From NCBI RefSeq assembly GCF_030013205.1, contig NZ_CP122648.1: a DNA stretch of 64,000 nucleotides; one strand, written 5' to 3'. The stretch's first letter is position 1; the number at the start of each line of letters is the position of its first letter. The position numbers and the translations under genes are program-made. Shown here piece by piece: positions 6,268 through 15,327 of this stretch. The DNA comes from Escherichia coli. Its GTDB lineage: Bacteria; Pseudomonadota; Gammaproteobacteria; Enterobacterales; Enterobacteriaceae. The notes below the pieces were generated by a model. The model searched no databases, had not been told where the DNA came from, and saw only the letters and a program-made list of their open reading frames with translations.

Positions 6268-6359
6268 TTTATTAACGCGATTGTAAAACTGCGGTTTTTA
6301 CTCGTTTACAACGCGTGCGCTGGACATTACCATCCTCCTCTGCGATTTATCATCGCAAT

Positions 6360-6437
6360 CAAACGACTCGGGGTGCCCTTCTGCGTGAAGGCTGAGAAAT
6401 ACCCGTATCACCTGATCTGGATAATGCCAGCGTAGGG
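6360..6437 (+). repeat. Left copy of 78-bp direct repeat: TPP-riboswitch aptamer segment without downstream expression platform (att-like)
   Basis: Identical base-for-base to 15250-15327; sequence diverges immediately on both sides. Confidence 0.85.
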
Positions 6438-6520
6438 GGCCAAAATAGTCTTGAAAATTATGTGGTTGTATCTCTTTTTGACCATAAATCATGCTGTTAA
6501 GGTACAAAAAGGGGTCGTTT

Positions 6521-7828
6521 ATGAGGTCAAGAACTCTCCCATACACATTTCAGCGAAACGGTAATTACTATCTACAAATCCGGCTTTCGGATGGTCGGAT
6601 ATACAAAAAATCACTTTTTACTGACAGTTATCGCGAAGCATCGGCGTTGATGATTGGCCTTACTCCGCACATTCCTTTCGTTAAATCACTCGCTACTCCG
6701 TTGCCGCAATTTAATAAGTTTGTTTCAAACTTGATCGCTTCGTCACGTAACGTAATGATTCCGTTGCCACTCCCTCAGCAATTGAACAATATTTCTAAAG
6801 AAGTTTTGCAGCTTCAACCACCAGCCAAACCGGAAAAGGTGCTAACACTTGCTGATGCGTGGGCTATGTACAAGGAGGAAAGAGGTCGAAATTGGACAAA
6901 ATCGATCTCAATGGCAAATGAGCGTTATATGGAGGTATTGCTTGTTGTCTTGGGAAAAGAAACAGACGTAACGGCAATCACCAAACAAGATATTAAGCGA
7001 GTAATGGAAACTGTCGAAAACTTACCAAAGCGTGTAGTGCAACCGTATAGGTCAATGACTATTCAGCAACTAATCGAATGTGATGATGTGCTGCCAGAGG
7101 ATTTAGTTGGTGCTGAGGCTGTACATAAGCACCTTAAAATCTACAAATCGTTATTCAAAACATTTCTGACTGAAAACAAAGATATTCTATCTAAGTCTCC
7201 GACTGATGGAATAGTAGCGGCACCATCCAAAGCTAGGTTTGGTGCATACAGTGCAGCAGAAATGAAAAAATTTGTAGGATGGGCACTAAAGCAGCCTGAT
7301 GGATGGCAGAAGTGGATCACTTTGTTGTTGGCGTACACAGGAGCCAGAAGAGGTGAGATTGCTAAACTGGAGAAGTCGCAGATCAAATTTGATGAAGATA
7401 GCCAGCGGCACTATCTTCTGATCGCGGAAAGAAGGCTGGGTAAAACTGAGAATGCTACAAGACAGGTAGTGATTCATCCCAAACTGATTGAGTGGGGGTT
7501 TCTGGATTTTGTTAACCGCCAATGGAAAGAGAAAATCTTTTCGGAAGTCTCAGGTCGAAATATGTCAAAGATAGGTAAAGTTCTTTCAGATGTTCGTGAT
7601 CAGCTTGATATTCCTTATCTTGATGATTATGGGCAGCGGCGCTTGGTGCATAGTTTCCGGCATACTATGATTTCTACTTGTTTAGCTGGTTGGGTGAGTA
7701 ATTTGGCGCATCTGCAACAGGTGGTAGGTCATGAGAAAAGCGGTTTAGGGATTACCAGACGCTATTTGCACTCTTTTCCTTTACGTTCAATTTGTTACGT
7801 GATTGATGGTTTGGACTGGTTAAATTGA
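6521..7828 (+). CDS. Tyrosine site-specific integrase (phage/P4-like integrase family)
   Basis: C-terminal catalytic motifs TGARRGE, HSFRHT (HxxR) and RRYLH (Tyr nucleophile); ATG 6521 with AGGGG RBS preferred over 6491. Confidence 0.85.
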   Translation: MRSRTLPYTFQRNGNYYLQIRLSDGRIYKKSLFTDSYREASALMIGLTPHIPFVKSLATPLPQFNKFVSNLIASSRNVMIPLPLPQQLNNISKEVLQLQPPAKPEKVLTLADAWAMYKEERGRNWTKSISMANERYMEVLLVVLGKETDVTAITKQDIKRVMETVENLPKRVVQPYRSMTIQQLIECDDVLPEDLVGAEAVHKHLKIYKSLFKTFLTENKDILSKSPTDGIVAAPSKARFGAYSAAEMKKFVGWALKQPDGWQKWITLLLAYTGARRGEIAKLEKSQIKFDEDSQRHYLLIAERRLGKTENATRQVVIHPKLIEWGFLDFVNRQWKEKIFSEVSGRNMSKIGKVLSDVRDQLDIPYLDDYGQRRLVHSFRHTMISTCLAGWVSNLAHLQQVVGHEKSGLGITRRYLHSFPLRSICYVIDGLDWLN

Positions 7829-7869
7829 TGTGAGCCTCGTGAGAAAGGGAATAAATAGAGAAAATCAAG

Positions 7870-7897
7870 TTGTTACCTCATTGGCAGGGGATATAAT
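7870..7897 (+). promoter_or_regulatory. Candidate sigma70 promoter for nuclease gene
   Basis: TTGTTA-16 bp-TATAAT, ~30 bp upstream of ATG 7928; followed by near-palindrome TGACCATATTGTCA (possible operator). Confidence 0.45.
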
Positions 7898-7927
7898 GAC
7901 CATATTGTCATCTTGAGGAACAAAAGT

Positions 7928-9499
7928 ATGGTTGCTCGTTCTAACCTTGTAAATTTAGATGCACTGATTAAGCGTGCTGATTTAGGTTTAAAGATCCAAG
8001 ATAACTCTTCATTTGAAACGCTAAACAGTATTCCTGCAAGAGAATTGAAATCAGGAAGTGGAATTGCTGCGCTTCTGAGAAAACCAGATTTCCAGCGTGA
8101 AACAAATCATTGGGGGCCTGAGCAGGTTGTATCGCTTCTCGAATGCTACATCAATGGTGATTTGATACCTTCCGTTATTCTTTGGCGGTCTTCAACCCAT
8201 CTTTTTGTGATCGATGGTGGTCATCGTTTAAGTGCGTTACGTGCTTGGGTTGAAGATGATTATGGCGACGGTCATATATCCCATCAACTTTTTGGGCATG
8301 ATATTCCTCGTGAACAACGCCGCGCTGCAGATAGAACGAGAAAGCTTGTGAAGGAGAGGGTCGGTAGCTGGGAATATTATCAGAAGTTGCTTGCCGATGA
8401 TGCTTCATTGACCGAGGAACAGCAGAGAAGAATCAGCGTATTAACATCTCGTGGAATCTCAGTCCAATGGGTAGTGGGTGATGTAGATAAGGCAGAAACT
8501 TCATTTTTTAACATCAATATGAAGGGAACTCCTCTTGATGCTATCGAAGAGATGCTTCTAAAAAATCGCAAGAAAAGTATTCCGATAGCAACCCGAGCAA
8601 TTATTCGTGCCGGTAGAGGTCATCGCTATTGGTCGGGGTTTGATCAGAGCATTGCCCAGCAACTTGAAGATAAATCTGCAAAGCTGCATCGTTTGCTGTT
8701 CGAACCTGAAGTTGATCGCCCTATTAAAACTCTTGATCTTCCATTAGGCGGTTCTAGGGGGGTCAGGACAGCGATCCAAGTTTTGAAAGATTTCTTACTG
8801 ATCACTGATTGCAACCAGAATGGTGTTTTGAAAAAAATCGAAGCCTACCCTGATGATGCGTCGGGTGCTGATACGTTAAGAATCCTTTCCAAAGCCACAT
8901 CATTAAGCAATAGAATTACAGGCAATGGCGATGGTAGCTTGGGGCTTCATCCAGCGATTTATTTTTATGGTCCGACTGGAATCCACTCAACGCCAATGTT
9001 TCTAGGAACTGTGCTACTGGTGGCAAAACAACTCTCTAACAATAATGGTCAATTCTTTAAAGACTTCACAACAATCAGATCTAGGCTTGAGAGAATAATG
9101 ATCGAATTTAAGGACTTGATCGCAATGATAGTACAAAAACCAGGTAGTAATGTCCGAGTGGCTCGCTACTGTGATTTTTTAAATGCGGTGATCAAATCAC
9201 TCAAGCAGGGAGAGAATATTGATGAGAGTAAGCTTATCGAGCTGGCCGAATTGGAGGGGAGAATACTCTCTGGAGATTTTAAGAGAACATCAGCAAAAAT
9301 CAGCGATGAACAAAAAAGTAAGGTGTTCATTGACGTGGCTCTGCGCAACGCTTTGAAATGTCCGATTTGCCAAGGTTACCTTGATACTGAAAAGTCAGTT
9401 TCTTATGATCATATCGTACGTGTCCGTGAGGGAGGAGATGGTAATTCTGACAATGTACAGTTGACACACCCTTACTGTAACCAGTCAGTGAAGTGTTAA
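7928..9499 (+). CDS. ParB-like (DUF262/DGQHR-type) N-terminal domain fused to C-terminal HNH endonuclease; candidate defence/type IV restriction-like nuclease
   Basis: N-terminal motifs PDFQRETNHW and VIDGGHRLSAL; C-terminal CPICQ…YDHIVRV…NSDNVQLTHPYCN (HNH with Cys ligands); GAGGAA RBS before ATG 7928. Confidence 0.6.
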   Translation: MVARSNLVNLDALIKRADLGLKIQDNSSFETLNSIPARELKSGSGIAALLRKPDFQRETNHWGPEQVVSLLECYINGDLIPSVILWRSSTHLFVIDGGHRLSALRAWVEDDYGDGHISHQLFGHDIPREQRRAADRTRKLVKERVGSWEYYQKLLADDASLTEEQQRRISVLTSRGISVQWVVGDVDKAETSFFNINMKGTPLDAIEEMLLKNRKKSIPIATRAIIRAGRGHRYWSGFDQSIAQQLEDKSAKLHRLLFEPEVDRPIKTLDLPLGGSRGVRTAIQVLKDFLLITDCNQNGVLKKIEAYPDDASGADTLRILSKATSLSNRITGNGDGSLGLHPAIYFYGPTGIHSTPMFLGTVLLVAKQLSNNNGQFFKDFTTIRSRLERIMIEFKDLIAMIVQKPGSNVRVARYCDFLNAVIKSLKQGENIDESKLIELAELEGRILSGDFKRTSAKISDEQKSKVFIDVALRNALKCPICQGYLDTEKSVSYDHIVRVREGGDGNSDNVQLTHPYCNQSVKC

Positions 9500-9887
9500 A
9501 ATCACGTTTCACTTTTCGTTGTCATTTGTATCGAACGTTTTTGAGAAAGGGCAGGATTGCGAGCGAGTTACCAGCGTAAACAGATAAATACTGTTTTCGT
9601 AAGCCCACTGTCGCCGCTTTCCGCTCTGCAATTTTTGCTTGTCGGGGGGCTAATTGTGGCTTTGCTTGCCATAACATTAAAAGTCAGTAATATACTGAAA
9701 ATTAATACAATACTTTTCATATATCCCATTGAATATTCAGTTCATTGCCAAATAGCAAGCGGAGCACTCTCTCTTTAACGTTGTAGTAACTTAGTTGAAC
9801 AATTTTATAATATAATTTGTCTAAGTTGGTTGATGTATCAAAGCCTTTTTCTGAAGAATGAATTGGCGTGATTACTCACGCCAGATT

Positions 9888-10235
9888 TTAAATTTCAGAA
9901 CATAGGCTAAGCGTATAGACAGCAGTTTGCCCATCATTGTTAGTCGGTCTCATAACGAAAACAGGCTGACTCCCATTATCAATGTATGTGACTGCAACCC
10001 CTCCATCAGGTGTGGCATACATTTTTGCGATGCTTTTTTGACCTATAAAATCAAGTCTCCAAGTCTTACCACCAAGATGTATTGTCATTTTTTTATCTTG
10101 TATATCAAAAGTTGAATCTACAGAAACTTTCTGACTTCCCGAGTCAATATGACCTTCCTGTATTGCTTTACAGGAAAAGGTTGTGGCGTGGCCCATCACT
10201 GGAATTAACAAAGCGGCAAATACTAGTTTTTTCAT
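9888..10235 (-). CDS. Small secreted/periplasmic hypothetical protein (115 aa)
   Basis: Internal ATG with GGGAG RBS; signal peptide MKKLVFAALLIPVMGHA; no family recognised. Confidence 0.5.
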   Translation of the reverse strand: MKKLVFAALLIPVMGHATTFSCKAIQEGHIDSGSQKVSVDSTFDIQDKKMTIHLGGKTWRLDFIGQKSIAKMYATPDGGVAVTYIDNGSQPVFVMRPTNNDGQTAVYTLSLCSEI

Positions 10236-10345
10236 TTGTCTCCCTTGATGTGTCAAATGGATGGTGATGCTAATAATACATGATTGATTCAAAATGTCAC
10301 GATTAGTGCGTGGTTAATTGGTGCGTCAAATTGCATCTTTGTGCC

Positions 10346-10810
10346 ATGCGAAAGAATCTGAGATACCTTTTTGGACAACGAGTAAAAGAGTTCCGTATAG
10401 CTATTGGCTTAAGCCAAGAGGCCTTTGCAGATCGGTGTGGTTTTGCTCGTAGTTATATGAGTCGAATTGAGCGTGGTTGCTCTAATGCATCTCTTGATGC
10501 AATTGAGGTTCTGGCTGACGCTTTGCGTATTGAGCCTTGGCAGTTACTAGCTTCTGATTCAAGGAAAACTGATGATCAGGAGGTACTTGTTCCTTATGCT
10601 GCAGATGGGTCGTGTTTTCATCCAGGATTGGCAAGTACTCGCGATGGTTCGTTTAGAGTAGGGGAAAAATCAGCCCAGAAACGTTTCAGTTCGTTCAATG
10701 ACGCTCTCGAATACCTTCGTGGAATGGAAACCGCGAAGTGGCGTAGGCCTAATGCTAGTGGTAATTGGGGAATTGTATCTGCGGTTAAATGGGATCGACT
10801 GAATCAATAA
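10346..10810 (+). CDS. XRE-family (Cro/CI-type) HTH transcriptional regulator with uncharacterised C-terminal domain
   Basis: HTH segment LSQEAFADRCGFARSYMSRIERG; start codon uncertain (GTG 10310 or ATG 10346). Confidence 0.55.
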   Translation: MRKNLRYLFGQRVKEFRIAIGLSQEAFADRCGFARSYMSRIERGCSNASLDAIEVLADALRIEPWQLLASDSRKTDDQEVLVPYAADGSCFHPGLASTRDGSFRVGEKSAQKRFSSFNDALEYLRGMETAKWRRPNASGNWGIVSAVKWDRLNQ

Positions 10811-10976
10811 GATATCAGTAATTTTCGGGCCACTCCACAAGGCAATAAGTGGCTTAGTGGTGATTATCGAAGGGGAATACAAGCGAGCACCTAGGCACCA
10901 TTGCAAGAACCGCTCAACGCTGAGATCAGCAAGCCCCGATTTCTGCCGACCGTCCCTGTCAAATATCAAGGAGGCA

Positions 10977-11516
10977 TTACGCCTCCTCTTCTTCCTTCTT
11001 AATTCGCTGTACCGTCGAAGGAGCAACATTAAAGATCTCGGCGGTTTTACGCACTGACACGCCATCAGAAAGGGCTTTCTTTATACCTTCTCGATCCACT
11101 GCCTTACCTTTACCACGCTTTCTAGGATTGACGGCTTGCGCTTCTCGTTTACGTTCTAACATCAGTTCACGTTCACACGTTGCCACTGCCGACAACATAG
11201 TAAGCATCATTTTTCCCATCGCGCTTGTAATGTCTGCAATGATCCCTTCTTTGTGAAAGCGAACAATTACACCACGATTATTAAGTTGTTCCACTAAGGC
11301 AAGAATGTCTAAGGTGTTACGCCCTAAACGATCAAGAGAGTGGACGTGTAAGGTGTCGCCTTCTCTCAGATAGGCTAAACACGCTTGTAAGCCTGGGCGG
11401 TTAGTGTCTTTACCAGACAGCTTATCTTCAAAGACTTTGTCGAGAGTTAGTCCTGCAAGCTGGCGATCAGTATTTTGATCTACAGTGCTCACACGCTTAT
11501 AGCCGATATTGCTCAT
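10977..11516 (-). CDS. Serine recombinase (resolvase/DNA invertase family)
   Basis: N-terminus MSNIGYKRVSTVDQNTDRQ (catalytic Ser motif), C-terminal HTH; ATG 11516 with AAGGGGA RBS. Confidence 0.8.
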   Translation of the reverse strand: MSNIGYKRVSTVDQNTDRQLAGLTLDKVFEDKLSGKDTNRPGLQACLAYLREGDTLHVHSLDRLGRNTLDILALVEQLNNRGVIVRFHKEGIIADITSAMGKMMLTMLSAVATCERELMLERKREAQAVNPRKRGKGKAVDREGIKKALSDGVSVRKTAEIFNVAPSTVQRIKKEEEEA

Positions 11517-11564
11517 AAAATCCCCTTGATGTATCGATTTGGCACCACTCCAATGCAAATGAGT

Positions 11565-11660
11565 GTGTTGTATTCATTTGGTCTGTTTCAAGCCTTATGG
11601 ATACGGAATATTACACGATTTAGCTGTATTCATTTGGTATGCCTAATGGATACGCAGGGG
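11565..11660. promoter_or_regulatory. res-like recombinase binding sites upstream of the serine recombinase gene
   Basis: Two similar subsites TGTATTCATTTGGT…ATGGATACG with internal imperfect dyad symmetry, directly upstream of recombinase start. Confidence 0.4.
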
Positions 11661-11769
11661 GATAGATTAAATGGTGTTCTGTTTATACAGGTTTATTTGT
11701 TAGATCAACAAGTTGGCATTTCTAAACAGATGTTTGAACGTTGCCAAATGCCTTGACAACACAAGAAAA

Positions 11770-12720
11770 TGGCTTGCTATGAACGCATTACACGAAATAA
11801 GGCTATAAAAACAAAATAAATTTTAAAATTTGCACAAAAACGAGAAAACTCGTTCGACAAATAATAGATTGGTTTTTAATCGACAATTTCTGACAATTTC
11901 TGATGGTGCTCTGTAAACCGCATTACACAAGGCTTTGCGAAAGTGATGTAAAAGTGAAGAAAGTTAACATTGCACTTTGAAGCCATTTTTCATTGGATTT
12001 TTTAGTAGGGAATTACACAGGGAATAGAGAGCATTATTCTATGATTTACACAGGGAATATAGGGGATTATGGCACACACATAGAAAGGCATTACACAGAG
12101 TGAGTGCTATGTGATGATTGGTAGTAACGGTAGGTCACTGTGAGCTACCCCCCACAGAATTCTGTTACCCCTATCAAGTCTAACAGGGGTTTATAAAGAA
12201 TAATAAACCGATGATACCCCTATCAATATTGATACCCCTATTAGCTTTGATATGACTACCCCTATCAAAACTGATACCCGATAAGAATAAGTTAATAAGA
12301 ATAATTAAATAATATTCTTTATATCTATATATATGATCTTTTTGCCTTCCGGCGTTAGCTTCACTCTCTGGCAAGCAGCCTTACTCCGCTATCTTTGGGC
12401 TTCGTGGCTGGCCCGTTCCGCTCACACCGAAAGCAAAGCGTTACTCTTCTTCGTGTAACTATCGTTGGCGGTAACGCCACACGAAGAAATACTATTGCGC
12501 TGTGCGCAGTAAGAGTAATCACCTAACCAATCACCTGATTGCTTACGTGTTAACTCTCTCTAACTCTTAATTACCCTCCTACATTTAATAACTCTATTAT
12601 TCTCTGTAGTTGTGTAATTACTCGAAGAGAGAGCGGCTAAAGCTCAATTACACTCTGCTTTCCTCGTGTAATTTCACTAAGCCTCAATACAATTTCACTT
12701 CCTACATTCTGTAGTCGTGT
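11770..12720. repeat. Iteron-like repeat cluster in 1.9 kb ORF-free AT-rich region (putative origin or regulatory hub)
   Basis: Five direct copies of (C)ATTACACAG at ~11777-12100, four copies of TACCCCTATCAA at ~12163-12270, reverse-orientation GTGTAAT copies at ~12451-12715. Confidence 0.5.
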
Positions 12721-13503
12721 AATAGTTTTCGGTGGGGAAAAGCCAGAGGCGACACCGAAAGAAAATTCTGATCTTATTAATCTTATCTATCTTAGTTAAT
12801 CTTCTTACTTACTTTATCTACTTTATTATTAATAATAGCTTTATAAGCTCTCTGTGTAGCTCTCTGACGCAAGAAACAGCATTCAGGAAGGGAATCACCT
12901 TAGAAAAGTGTTCTTTGCGTCATAATGTGTTTTATGAAGGATTCAGAGGTGTTTCATAACACAAGGTATAGAGGATATTTTAGTTAATTAAAAATAAGGG
13001 GGCTAAATGCTTCTCTAACAGCATTAAGCAGGGTAGAGAATGGAAATGCATTGCCTACGTATATATAAACTCACTACAAGGCTTTACAGAGCGTTTTATA
13101 AAGTAACTAATCTAAGAACTCTCTGTTTTATATCTATCATCATCTTTCCATCATCTAACAAATACAAAATAAGCCCCTTAAATAAGCCTCTGGCGAGCTA
13201 AACAGCCATTACATAAGGGAATGTATTTCTTTTATCAAAACTTCGTTAGAACGCGTTTTAGAGCGTTTTATACAATAAGGAAGAATAGGACCGTCCGCAA
13301 GAGCACGAATTGCTAAGAAAGAATGTAAACGCATGAAAAATATCAGATTTTTTATGAAAATATATTGACAAATGTTTCTTTATATGTAATAATAGGTATT
13401 AGAGAGACAGAAAAACATTCTTCTCTAAATAATCAAAATCAATGCACTTTGAAGCCGTCAGGCTTGCAAGGTGTTTTTCTTTTAACTGAATAAGGAGTTT
13501 TTT

Positions 13504-13692
13504 ATGAAATGGTTTACACCGGAACACGTCGTAGAGGCATTTAAAAAAGGTGAGCTAACACGACATCAAGTAGTAATGAATCGTAATATGGCAAGGAGTC
13601 GAGGTTATCCAGAGCGTGAAAAATGTTTCGATGCAGCACTAAAAATTATTGATAAATTAAGAAAAAATGAAAAAGGATCTGAAACAGAGTAA
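13504..13692 (+). CDS. Hypothetical small protein (62 aa)
   Basis: AAGGAG RBS upstream of ATG; no family recognised. Confidence 0.35.
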   Translation: MKWFTPEHVVEAFKKGELTRHQVVMNRNMARSRGYPEREKCFDAALKIIDKLRKNEKGSETE

Positions 13693-13711
13693 AGAAGAGA
13701 AGGAGAAAACT

Positions 13712-13882
13712 ATGAGCGAAACTACAGAAAAGAAAAGACAACCACGCACTTGCTTTCATATTCCTGATGAAGTATTTCAGGTGTTGTTTAAAGAAGCCAG
13801 AAGTAAACGTATCACTGTTACAGATTACATTCTTGATATGTTGAAAAGAGAGGCTGAAACACTCTCAAATAAAAGCAAGTGA
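13712..13882 (+). CDS. Small ribbon-helix-helix (CopG/Arc-like) DNA-binding protein
   Basis: 56 aa; AAGGAGAAAAC RBS; N-terminal RTCFHIPDEVFQVLFKEA…ITVTDYILDML pattern typical of RHH. Confidence 0.45.
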   Translation: MSETTEKKRQPRTCFHIPDEVFQVLFKEARSKRITVTDYILDMLKREAETLSNKSK

Positions 13883-13936
13883 TTTTTATCACCATAGTAG
13901 CGCCGTAGAGCGTGATTACATCAAGGAGCTTTTTTA

Positions 13937-14599
13937 ATGATTAAACATACAAAACCTTTCTTAGGAATAGATTATGACTTACTAGCAATCACTTCCCTAG
14001 TGATTAACGGCAAAACAAAAGAAGTAAAACTACATCATAAGATCATTTATTCTTATTTGTTAAGTTTATCTGGCACATATCAAAAGGTAACACCATCTTT
14101 GAAAGGTATTGGTGAGCGGTTAGGAGTAGGTACAGATCAGACGGTACGCCGTCATATCAAAGATCTTGTTTCTTTTGGATGGTTGAAGATTGAGGAAAGG
14201 GCAGGTAGCACAAATGCTTATATTGTCCTTCCTTATGAACAAGAAGCCCAGACACAACAAGAAGCTACCGTTAAAGCTGTTCAGGAACAGCTTCCCCCTA
14301 CGGAAGATAATAAAGAGTTTTCTTTTGATGTTCTTGATGATTGGGATGCGCCTTTACCTTGGGAAATGGAAGAAACGCCATCTGATGAAAAGGTAGCTAA
14401 TGATAATGAGGAGGATGTGTTAGAGAATTTTGCCTCTCTTATCATCCAGGAGAAACACACAAGAACAGGAGGGGCATCATTTATAGAATTTGCAACATCG
14501 TTAGCCTGTAAGCACAGGATAAAGCTACCAAATGGTATTGAGGCATATTTTGCTAAGAAACATCCCAAAGTATATGAAGACTTTGATATTCCATTTTAA
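13937..14599 (+). CDS. HTH (winged-helix-like) protein with acidic linker; possible iteron-binding replication or regulatory protein
   Basis: 220 aa; AAGGAG RBS; HTH-like segment LKGIGERLGVGTDQTVRRHIKDLVSFGWL; sits beside iteron region. Confidence 0.45.
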   Translation: MIKHTKPFLGIDYDLLAITSLVINGKTKEVKLHHKIIYSYLLSLSGTYQKVTPSLKGIGERLGVGTDQTVRRHIKDLVSFGWLKIEERAGSTNAYIVLPYEQEAQTQQEATVKAVQEQLPPTEDNKEFSFDVLDDWDAPLPWEMEETPSDEKVANDNEEDVLENFASLIIQEKHTRTGGASFIEFATSLACKHRIKLPNGIEAYFAKKHPKVYEDFDIPF

Positions 14600-14794
14600 T
14601 AAGGAGGGTTATGATTCAATATTTAGTAAAAAATAAAGTAGAATTCATCTATTCCACTCTCTAAAAATCTATCTGTGTAATATAAAATGAAAACATTATG
14701 GTATTAGCTATGTATTGGTTATTGTTCTTTCTGGCCTTAGAAACATATGCAAGTAAGTCTGGAAAACGAAAGTAATATATTGATGATTTGTTTG

Positions 14795-15052
14795 TTATAA
14801 CTTCGTGGTGTCAAGTCCAGCAGTTTTGAGTCGCTCGGTAAGATTTCTCATTTTGCTGAACTCTGTACCAAAGCTGGCTTTAAGTCCTACACCTTCGCAA
14901 AACTCTTTTGCCGTGACGTTTTTCAGATGGTCAACATATTTGGTCATCTGGAGGTGCATTTCCATCGTTTGGCTATTTCGTGATGCGCTGCTAATGGCTT
15001 GCTTAATGTTCTCGTAGATCTGGGTTCTGTCATTGTTTATCCCACCTATCAA
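14795..15052 (-). CDS. Hypothetical protein (weak call; no in-frame ATG at ORF start)
   Basis: 85-aa ORF begins at TTG; first in-frame ATG would give 56 aa; no family recognised. Confidence 0.25.
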   Translation of the reverse strand: MIGGINNDRTQIYENIKQAISSASRNSQTMEMHLQMTKYVDHLKNVTAKEFCEGVGLKASFGTEFSKMRNLTERLKTAGLDTTKL

Positions 15053-15249
15053 ATTTAGAAAAATAATATTAATTAGCTAATTAATATAATCAATGGTTTT
15101 CACCATCTGAATGATAGCCGTTAATTGTTTCTTTTTCATTCCTTCTATGGGGTACAAAATGGGGTACACAGAGAAGAAGCAATTAATGGAGGCGAGCTTG
15201 CATCTGCAAGCCACTTCCCCTAAGCTGGCACAAAATATAGAGATTCAAC

Positions 15250-15327
15250 CAAACGACTCGGGGTGCCCTTCTGCGTGAAGGCTGAGAAATACCCGTATCA
15301 CCTGATCTGGATAATGCCAGCGTAGGG
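15250..15327 (+). repeat. Right copy of 78-bp direct repeat (part of intact thiM riboswitch)
   Basis: Identical to 6360-6437. Confidence 0.85.

Follow-up and report, generated by a model that had tools for sequence, protein, structure and literature searches.

The 64,000-nt window analysed here, a stretch of an Escherichia coli chromosome (RefSeq assembly GCF_030013205.1, contig NZ_CP122648.1), carries a divergent gene pair at positions 9888–10810. One gene (9888–10235, minus strand) encodes a predicted exported protein of 115 amino acids (aa), referred to as SEC115 (WP_000737404.1, 'hypothetical protein'). The other (10346–10810, plus strand) encodes a 154-aa helix-turn-helix (HTH) regulator, referred to as XRE (WP_074150206.1, 'helix-turn-helix domain-containing protein'). 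The pair lies in an 8.9-kb island, between a nuclease gene and a recombinase gene. An earlier note, made from the DNA letters alone, had described this divergent arrangement, including the two cysteines of the secreted protein. Open reading frames (ORFs), RefSeq coding sequences (CDS) and selection analysis all bear it out: on an identical E. coli chromosome, RefSeq/PGAP annotates precisely these two CDS, and 120–122 of 5426 complete E. coli genomes carry the pair, each as a single chromosomal copy. In E. coli ATCC 8739 the pair is 99.8% identical. The ratio of non-synonymous to synonymous differences (pN/pS) was 0.13–0.19 for SEC115 against a 76%-identical allele and within 0.13–0.20 for XRE against three orthologues of 76–81% identity, with synonymous sites saturated in both comparisons; a more distant Pseudomonas orthologue of XRE gave 0.31. 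Both genes are under purifying selection and are more than chance ORFs.

SEC115 carries a signal peptide with n-, h- and c-regions (aa 1–17; 10185–10235, minus strand) and is predicted to be exported by Sec and cleaved after GHA. The protein starts with MKKLVFAALLIPVMGHA, continues past the cleavage point with TTFSC and ends in SLCSEI; the predicted site is of the AXA type, with GHA before the T here and SSA before the T also found in the family. The mature protein would comprise about 98 aa, with Cys22 and Cys112 lying one near each end and probably joined by a disulphide bond in the periplasm. A lipobox is lacking, Cys22 being preceded by T-F-S and, in relatives, by F-T, F-I or F-N. Alignment of the family revealed a variable signal-peptide core and a conserved mature part that includes both cysteines. 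A Shine-Dalgarno sequence (GGGAG) stands 4–5 nt before the SEC115 ATG, and a G+C-rich, terminator-like hairpin with T-runs follows directly after the stop codon, readable on both strands (9863–9884 on the plus strand, 9883–9864 on the minus strand).

One sequence search and one profile search against 5.8 billion proteins placed the SEC115 family in 44 clusters, all enteric (Escherichia, Enterobacter, Buttiauxella and Klebsiella) and none annotated. In PHROGs, the full-length match was phrog_35183 (4e-27), a family of unknown function. Only sub-threshold matches were obtained in Pfam, NCBIfam and PADLOC (DUF6406, E-value 0.022; a formylmethanofuran dehydrogenase model, 0.005), a PDB profile search gave no match, and no homologue was found among 50,697 phage records, which led us to reject a phage origin of the pair. 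The commoner allele of the family, 116 aa long and 76% identical, lies in a Kiwa-carrying E. coli island next to lptF/lptG, immediately upstream of a resolvase and divergent from another small exported ORF. SEC115 itself represents an orphan family of enteric genera, and nothing yet marks it as important.

XRE consists of a C-protein-like HTH (residues 1–70; 10346–10555), a low-confidence stretch that is probably a linker (residues 72–77) and an unnamed beta-rich domain (residues 78–154; 10577–10807), all on the plus strand. Residues 9–63 match HTH_31 (5e-12) and HTH_3 (1.4e-9), and the HTH is nearest, by both sequence and structure, to the controller (C) proteins of restriction–modification (R-M) systems, C.AhdI being the best match. 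In the AlphaFold2 model (predicted local distance difference test, pLDDT, 88.6), residues 78–154 are confidently modelled as a separate domain. The C-terminal domain that the earlier note had called unknown is genuine and conserved, and has no Pfam model. Full-length relatives that include it form 452 clusters and occur in Enterobacter, Yersinia, Serratia, Pantoea, Proteus, Pseudomonas and Betaproteobacteria, with 52–81% identity at the genome loci examined (80 of the 374 loci found were retrieved). The XRE gene is monocistronic and convergent with the recombinase gene, and no Shine-Dalgarno sequence precedes its ATG.

The divergent intergenic region measures 110 bp. Within it, a block containing a candidate operator (GATTCAAAATGTCACGATTAGTGCGTGGTTAATTGGTGCGTCAAAT; 10286–10331, plus strand) is kept in 33 non-identical loci, ranging from E. 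coli and Enterobacteriaceae to Burkholderiales and thus spanning gamma- and betaproteobacteria, whereas the other intergenic DNA diverges. The block has the consensus t.GaTTcaaAATGTCaC.atTgGaGCGTGGCc.tttaGTgg.Caa, with a G[CA]GTGG anchor 38–42 nt before the start codon in all 33 loci. The left candidate site, OL (10298–10308), is the dyad CAC-GATTA-GTG and is followed by an invariant CGTG (10309–10312). In the right candidate site, OR (10313–10323; GTT-AATTG-GTG), the right half alone is conserved. Both sites share a 15-bp register, visible in ATTAGTGCGT at 10302–10311 and ATTGGTGCGT at 10317–10326. The layout of this in-silico footprint is therefore a 3-N5-3 dyad, CGTG and a second site 15 bp away, and 19–22 nt separate the end of the site from the XRE ATG in all loci.

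The predicted sigma-70 promoter of SEC115 (10273–10300, minus strand) matches the consensus at 10 of 12 positions, with a -35 hexamer GTGACA (10300–10295), a 16-nt spacer and a -10 hexamer TATTAT (10278–10273). Its -35 hexamer coincides with the left arm of OL. The same combination, GTGACA-16/17-TATnAT, recurs in nine loci with short intergenic regions and three unrelated partner families. Eleven further loci, of the type designated L010, have a 238-nt intergenic region with a second, fully palindromic operator copy (GATTTTAAATGTCACTATTGGTGTTTATTTTGAATC) about 100 bp upstream of the XRE-proximal one; this copy supplies GTGACA, and a 16-nt spacer leads to a conserved TATAAT or TATGAT (alignment A4). 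The predicted promoter of the divergent partner is thus embedded in an operator copy in 20 of the 33 loci, across four unrelated partner families, which is the best evidence at hand that XRE represses the divergent gene. In the L010-type loci, the second copy occupies columns 91–127 of alignment A4, its flanking GATTCAAAAT arms may be recognised themselves, and the operator spacing could permit DNA looping. A search of 17 islands for extra operator copies, including the surroundings of int, res and rep genes, found none above chance, and no operator was found near the nuclease gene. Each island has one operator, located within the regulator's own divergent region.

These features recall the C proteins at several levels. 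The C-box follows the layout GACTnnnAGTC-nnnn-GACTnnnAGTC, as in the C.Esp1396I operator ATGTGACTTATAGTCCGTGTGATT... (PMC2504287), and the C.AhdI operators are 15 bp apart centre-to-centre (PMC1885659). In leaderless C genes, 17–18 nt typically separate the site and the start codon, and a -10 element cannot be recognised (PMC2632904). Like C.AhdI, C.BclI, C.Esp1396I and C.PvuII, whose HTH domains are its nearest relatives in sequence and structure, XRE has, according to the in-silico footprint, a two-part operator immediately before its gene, the parts being in a 15-bp register, lacks a Shine-Dalgarno sequence and lies a short distance from its site. C.Esp1396I also controls a methyltransferase gene besides its own operon (PMC3488213), and a comparable second target, the divergent gene, is proposed here. 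There are differences as well: C proteins are single-domain proteins of ~75–100 aa, whereas XRE is twice as long and has a conserved extra domain; its half-sites are CAC/GTG or CTC/GAG rather than GACT/AGTC; and its proposed second target encodes an exported protein. C homologues outside R-M systems, next to mobile-element genes, were noted in 2008 (PMC2632904). Taken together, the HTH homology, the operator footprint, the missing Shine-Dalgarno sequence and the short distance to the ATG lead us to read the N-terminal half of XRE as a true C-family switch.

We are modestly confident that the pair is a C-protein-type autoregulatory switch with an extra domain, which also gates a divergent, interchangeable gene for an exported protein. 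Most likely, XRE controls its own expression and represses the gene divergent to it. In a family of small islands equipped with an integrase, a serine recombinase and anti-phage cargo, the pair would act as a regulatory cassette complete in itself. An XRE dimer would bind the two-part operator, and occupancy of OL would stimulate XRE's own weak promoter, yielding a transcript that, lacking a Shine-Dalgarno sequence, is probably leaderless. Further occupancy of OR would then shut this promoter, resulting in delayed, homeostatic self-control. Because OL overlaps the predicted divergent -35 hexamer, the same binding would repress the SEC115 gene. SEC115 would consequently be expressed strongly on entry of the island into a naive cell, or when the regulator is inactivated via its C-terminal domain, possibly by a ligand, and would be kept low at other times.

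The C-terminal ~75 aa of XRE represent a widespread conserved domain. A search with residues 76–154 alone against 1.84 billion representative proteins retrieved 457 proteins at E≤1e-3, 187 of them at E≤1e-10, with the signature VPxAxDGSxFxPxL...VGxK...F..AL.YL..M..A.WRRPN..GNWG.V.AV.W. No Pfam model matched the domain at E≤10, and PHROGs and PDB sequences gave no significant match. The domain also stands alone in proteins of about 80 aa. It is C-terminal in ASCH proteins, one of which (L099, 6001–6906) directly follows ZorC/ZorD-like genes and a DUF2130 gene, and in a DnaQ-like exonuclease with a putative N-terminal GIY-YIG-like motif, read from the sequence alone. It is likewise C-terminal in proteins of 310–370 aa, some beside a gene resembling uracil-DNA glycosylase (UDG; a faint precomputed Pfam hit), and one 373-aa member is possibly a fusion to a UDG-like region. 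At the N-terminus, it is found in a 1249-aa protein of the YjiT/STY4851 family (NF038336, 1e-231). The fusions to ASCH, YjiT/STY4851 and DnaQ-like proteins are exemplified by L099, P0276 and P0163. Since the partners act on nucleic acids and the neighbourhoods are defence islands, we infer a sensing or nucleic-acid-binding role for the domain.

The gene opposite XRE is mostly an exported one, encoding a signal peptide, a lipobox or a transmembrane segment, and comes from at least nine unrelated families. In a crude hydrophobicity test, 68% of 31 automatically scored partners had a hydrophobic N-terminus, compared with 19% of control ORFs. SEC115 takes this place in E. coli; a signal-peptide family does so in Yersinia, Citrobacter, Enterobacter and Pseudomonas, a 165-aa membrane protein in many Enterobacterales, and other signal-peptide or lipoprotein ORFs in Serratia, Polynucleobacter, Oryzomicrobium and metagenome-assembled genomes (MAGs) of Burkholderiaceae and Comamonadaceae. 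BLASTP detected no similarity between SEC115 and the Yersinia partner, whereas the Yersinia and Pseudomonas partners are mutually related (E-value 1e-6). Exported partners of differing families opposite the same regulator indicate a second variable slot, biased to exported proteins, and SEC115, as one occupant of this interchangeable slot, is best regarded as accessory envelope cargo. The exclusion or immunity-type role that the earlier note had suggested for SEC115 fits such a slot and is no more than plausible. Visual inspection suggests that several exported partners have in common a periplasmic motif of helical appearance with a cysteine on either side, C-x2-W-[SG]-x-[MI]-A ... Y-x2-C (L004, 7153–7884, minus strand; L107, 2182–2550, plus strand; L043, 2016–2372, minus strand). 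The Yersinia partner weakly matches phrog_2315 over this part (E-value 0.0015), and the motif may be a recurrent domain of the exported slot.

Most loci in Enterobacterales and Pseudomonas follow one gene order: a DUF6538-type tyrosine integrase, variable cargo, a serine recombinase, the opposite-strand gene and XRE near the island end. The cargo in these islands includes Gabija-like domains (OLD-TOPRIM plus UvrD), an OLD-family nuclease, an AAA_13 ATPase, and NA37 with a partner. Relative to these islands, the integrase of the E. coli island is 23–27% identical and its recombinase 35–42% identical, whereas its XRE is 75–81% identical to the enterobacterial relatives, and the pair is flipped with respect to the recombinase there. 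Conservation of XRE alongside such divergence of integrase and recombinase indicates that the regulator module is exchanged between island backbones. The same flip raised the possibility of an invertible segment, which was rejected: no flanking inverted repeats were found, and the 54 E. coli genomes that match the query over nearly its full length each do so as one collinear piece, which counts against inversion. An XRE with the C-terminal domain, 78.6% identical, was also found on E. coli plasmids, more than 50 in number. The single plasmid looked at in detail (L108, NZ_AP025216.1, 7001–7465) has it between IS1 copies as a fragment without the island backbone, and a plasmid origin was discarded on this account. 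A Pseudomonas-type island was also observed on a human faecal virome scaffold (L107; MT836560.1, 9704 bp, 'UNVERIFIED Bacteriophage sp.'), comprising an integrase, NA37-like cargo, a resolvase, two small exported ORFs and a 59%-identical XRE that includes the C-terminal domain. Past the XRE gene comes an ORF for a HicB-like antitoxin, which may not belong to the island. The scaffold may represent an island that had been packaged, or else carry-over of host DNA.

Several observations weigh against the proposed C-type switch. Unlike true C proteins, XRE is partnered by no operonic restriction gene downstream and no methyltransferase in the island, and the nuclease close by can be exchanged for other cargo. 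Covariation within the dyad is not strict at its middle base, where CAC/GAG combinations are common. The promoters are consensus matches only, and their number in the region does not exceed that in shuffled sequence (six found, 4.6 expected). About four XRE loci have a non-exported, cytoplasmic-looking partner, and the Kiwa island with the 116-aa allele lacks an XRE protein bearing the C-terminal domain, so that the partnership is not obligatory. On the structural side, the AlphaFold model of SEC115 (19 sequences) reached a pLDDT of 46 and is unusable, and all three fold searches were swamped by the HTH.

The occurrence of the secreted family without this XRE at lptF/lptG is also what would be expected if the two genes were independent neighbours, XRE merely autoregulating and the secreted protein being unrelated cargo in a recombination-prone slot. 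The many other partners of XRE agree with this view, as does the loss of identity with other island variants at the 3' end of the SEC115 gene. We nevertheless consider it rather unlikely, given that the predicted -35 hexamer of the partner falls inside an operator copy in as many as 20 loci and four partner families, and that the divergent arrangement and its spacing are conserved from E. coli to Betaproteobacteria. Closer linkage is assumed where the pair is taken for a two-gene defence or abortive-infection module, in which the C-terminal domain would sense infection, for example through phage nucleic acid or protein, the regulator would dissociate from its site, and the cell would produce the exported protein as an envelope exclusion factor or suicide effector. 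The defence contexts of the C-terminal domain described above, the devotion of the host islands to defence cargo and the fast evolution of the exported slot are in keeping with this proposal. It is improbable in our estimation, as the PADLOC match covers the HTH region only, the partner families have no common fold or motif, and several partners are not exported. A type II toxin–antitoxin arrangement, with XRE as an antitoxin of the HigA, HipB or MqsA kind, was rejected because the partner is divergent and has a cleavable signal peptide instead of being a co-operonic cytoplasmic toxin; the NCBIfam HipB and MqsA matches of XRE are far below the cut-offs and cover the HTH only.

Two other readings had been put forward in the earlier note, and neither is supported. 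One regards XRE as the lysogeny-type repressor of the element. Spelled out here, XRE would be a master repressor similar to lambda cI, ICEBs1 ImmR or SaPI Stl, controlling excision, replication or transfer until a helper element inactivates it via the C-terminal domain. Like these proteins, XRE joins an HTH to a C-terminal domain, adjoins a divergent promoter region and resides in an integrative element, and structures of cI/ImmR/Stl-type proteins are among its HTH matches. A Rep-like HTH_36 gene with iteron-like repeats in the E. coli island and the 9.7-kb faecal virome scaffold carrying the same island type might also be quoted in its favour. Against it, the single operator per island, with no copies above chance near int, res or rep in the 17 islands, speaks against island-wide control; the divergent transcript encodes an exported protein and no excision (xis), replication (rep) or lytic genes; and XRE has neither a C-terminal S24 peptidase domain nor an ImmA-type partner. 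The same regulator, moreover, serves islands whose integrases and resolvases are as divergent as stated above, and the virome scaffold also contains the HicB-like ORF. The probability that XRE is a master repressor is accordingly low. The other reading makes XRE a sensor or regulator of the adjacent GmrSD/HNH nuclease. The genes are adjacent here, and at a Burkholderiaceae MAG locus (L038) a 56%-identical GmrSD homologue lies 2.4 kb from XRE. An identical XRE protein, however, stands beside two other cargos in further E. coli strains, and its relatives accompany many defence systems elsewhere; a nuclease slot that varies while XRE stays constant implies that XRE is not a nuclease sensor. The nuclease gene is also co-directional with the integrase gene and set apart from the pair by the SEC115 gene and its hairpin, and it has no operator nearby. 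We give this reading very little credence and retain that of a C-type switch gating an exported-protein slot.

CapH of CBASS and BrxR/WYL proteins are regulators associated with defence systems. The HTH of XRE resembles CapH (PADLOC 9e-9; PDB 7t5u), and XRE, like CapH and BrxR, travels with defence islands; unlike CapH, it has no CapP-type protease partner. Defence systems change from island to island beside an unchanging XRE, which is thus not committed to any single one of them. For the exported slot, a parallel is offered by Cor, Llp, SieA and Bor, small exported accessory proteins (prophage moron or superinfection-exclusion proteins) whose genes lie beside that of a mobile-element regulator and which vary between related elements. 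SEC115 differs from these in having no sequence similarity to them, no lipobox and no homologue in the phage records searched.

The island as a whole (6356–15327) lies between rcnR and thiM, in the flanking order yehA, rcnB, rcnA, rcnR ... thiM, thiD, and has a G+C content of 0.34–0.44 compared with about 0.5–0.57 for its surroundings. Its ends are 82-nt direct repeats (6356–6437 and 15246–15327), each within a complete thiamine pyrophosphate (TPP) riboswitch aptamer (Rfam RF00059; 6359–6454 and 15249–15345; scores of 61.9 and 71.2 bits). The insertion point is the thiM TPP riboswitch, and a complete aptamer remains at both island ends. The left aptamer lies 37 nt upstream of the start codon (6491) of the first island gene, a tyrosine integrase gene (6491–7828), and integrase expression might therefore respond to TPP. 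The variable cargo slot follows, occupied by the GmrSD_N plus HNH nuclease gene (7913–9499, plus strand). Between it and SEC115, a small signal-peptide ORF (9509–9729, minus strand) without RefSeq annotation is frameshifted at a poly-C run (AGCCCCCCGAC, about 9644–9650). One added C would give a 71-aa protein homologous to the 68/82-aa exported ORF beside the 116-aa allele in the Kiwa island at lptF/lptG (L104, 7614–7862), which leaves two readings of the ORF, a pseudogene or a gene that slippage turns on and off.

Beyond the pair, the serine recombinase gene, of the resolvase/invertase type (10977–11516, minus strand), is convergent with the XRE gene and is followed by ~2 kb free of ORFs, two small ORFs, and genes for an HTH_36 and an HTH_73 protein. 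The unannotated ~2 kb (11560–13500) carry iteron-like direct repeats at 12010–12070 (2 x 28 nt) and at 12163–12279 (TGATACCCCTATCAA-like, 4–5 copies). Downstream lies the HTH_36 ORF (13937–14599), which resembles phage replication initiators. Given the position of the repeats upstream of this ORF, the region may be an origin, which would suggest that the island can replicate.

Hochhauser et al. 2023 (PMC10121019) described 'integrase-only' or multi-recombinase defence islands of E. coli, which are small, combine integrase or recombinase genes with defence cargo and lack known transfer machinery; the island at thiM fits this description. The main text of that study contains no thiM, rcnR, resolvase, serine recombinase or XRE, and so does not seem to cover the present module of regulator and exported gene or the thiM site. 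Our literature search found no mention of DUF6538 integrases or of this island at thiM, nor any account of the fused domain, of how widely it occurs, or of its pairing with exported proteins in defence islands that combine an integrase and a resolvase. A bolder proposal, which we put forward as a long shot, is that the C-like HTH, the 'WRRPN-GNWG' domain and the divergent exported protein together form an unrecognised, widespread two-part module of mobile defence islands. With wiring resembling that of R-M systems, such a module would release a burst of exported protein on entry into a new cell, or after the domain senses invader nucleic acid or protein. The exported protein would then act as a rapidly diversifying envelope exclusion or immunity factor, and the sensor domain would be reused in ASCH, exonuclease, UDG-like and YjiT defence proteins.

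For the poorly understood 'integrase-only' defence islands, these results add a second variable slot, that of exported proteins, beside the known defence-system slot, together with a conserved operator and promoter design that predicts when the envelope protein is expressed. They also bring to light a domain without a Pfam model that is shared by several hundred representative proteins and recurs in defence contexts. If the switch indeed works as in R-M systems, the controller logic of delayed, self-limiting expression after transfer would extend to cargo other than R-M genes, a question left open by Sorokin et al. 2008.

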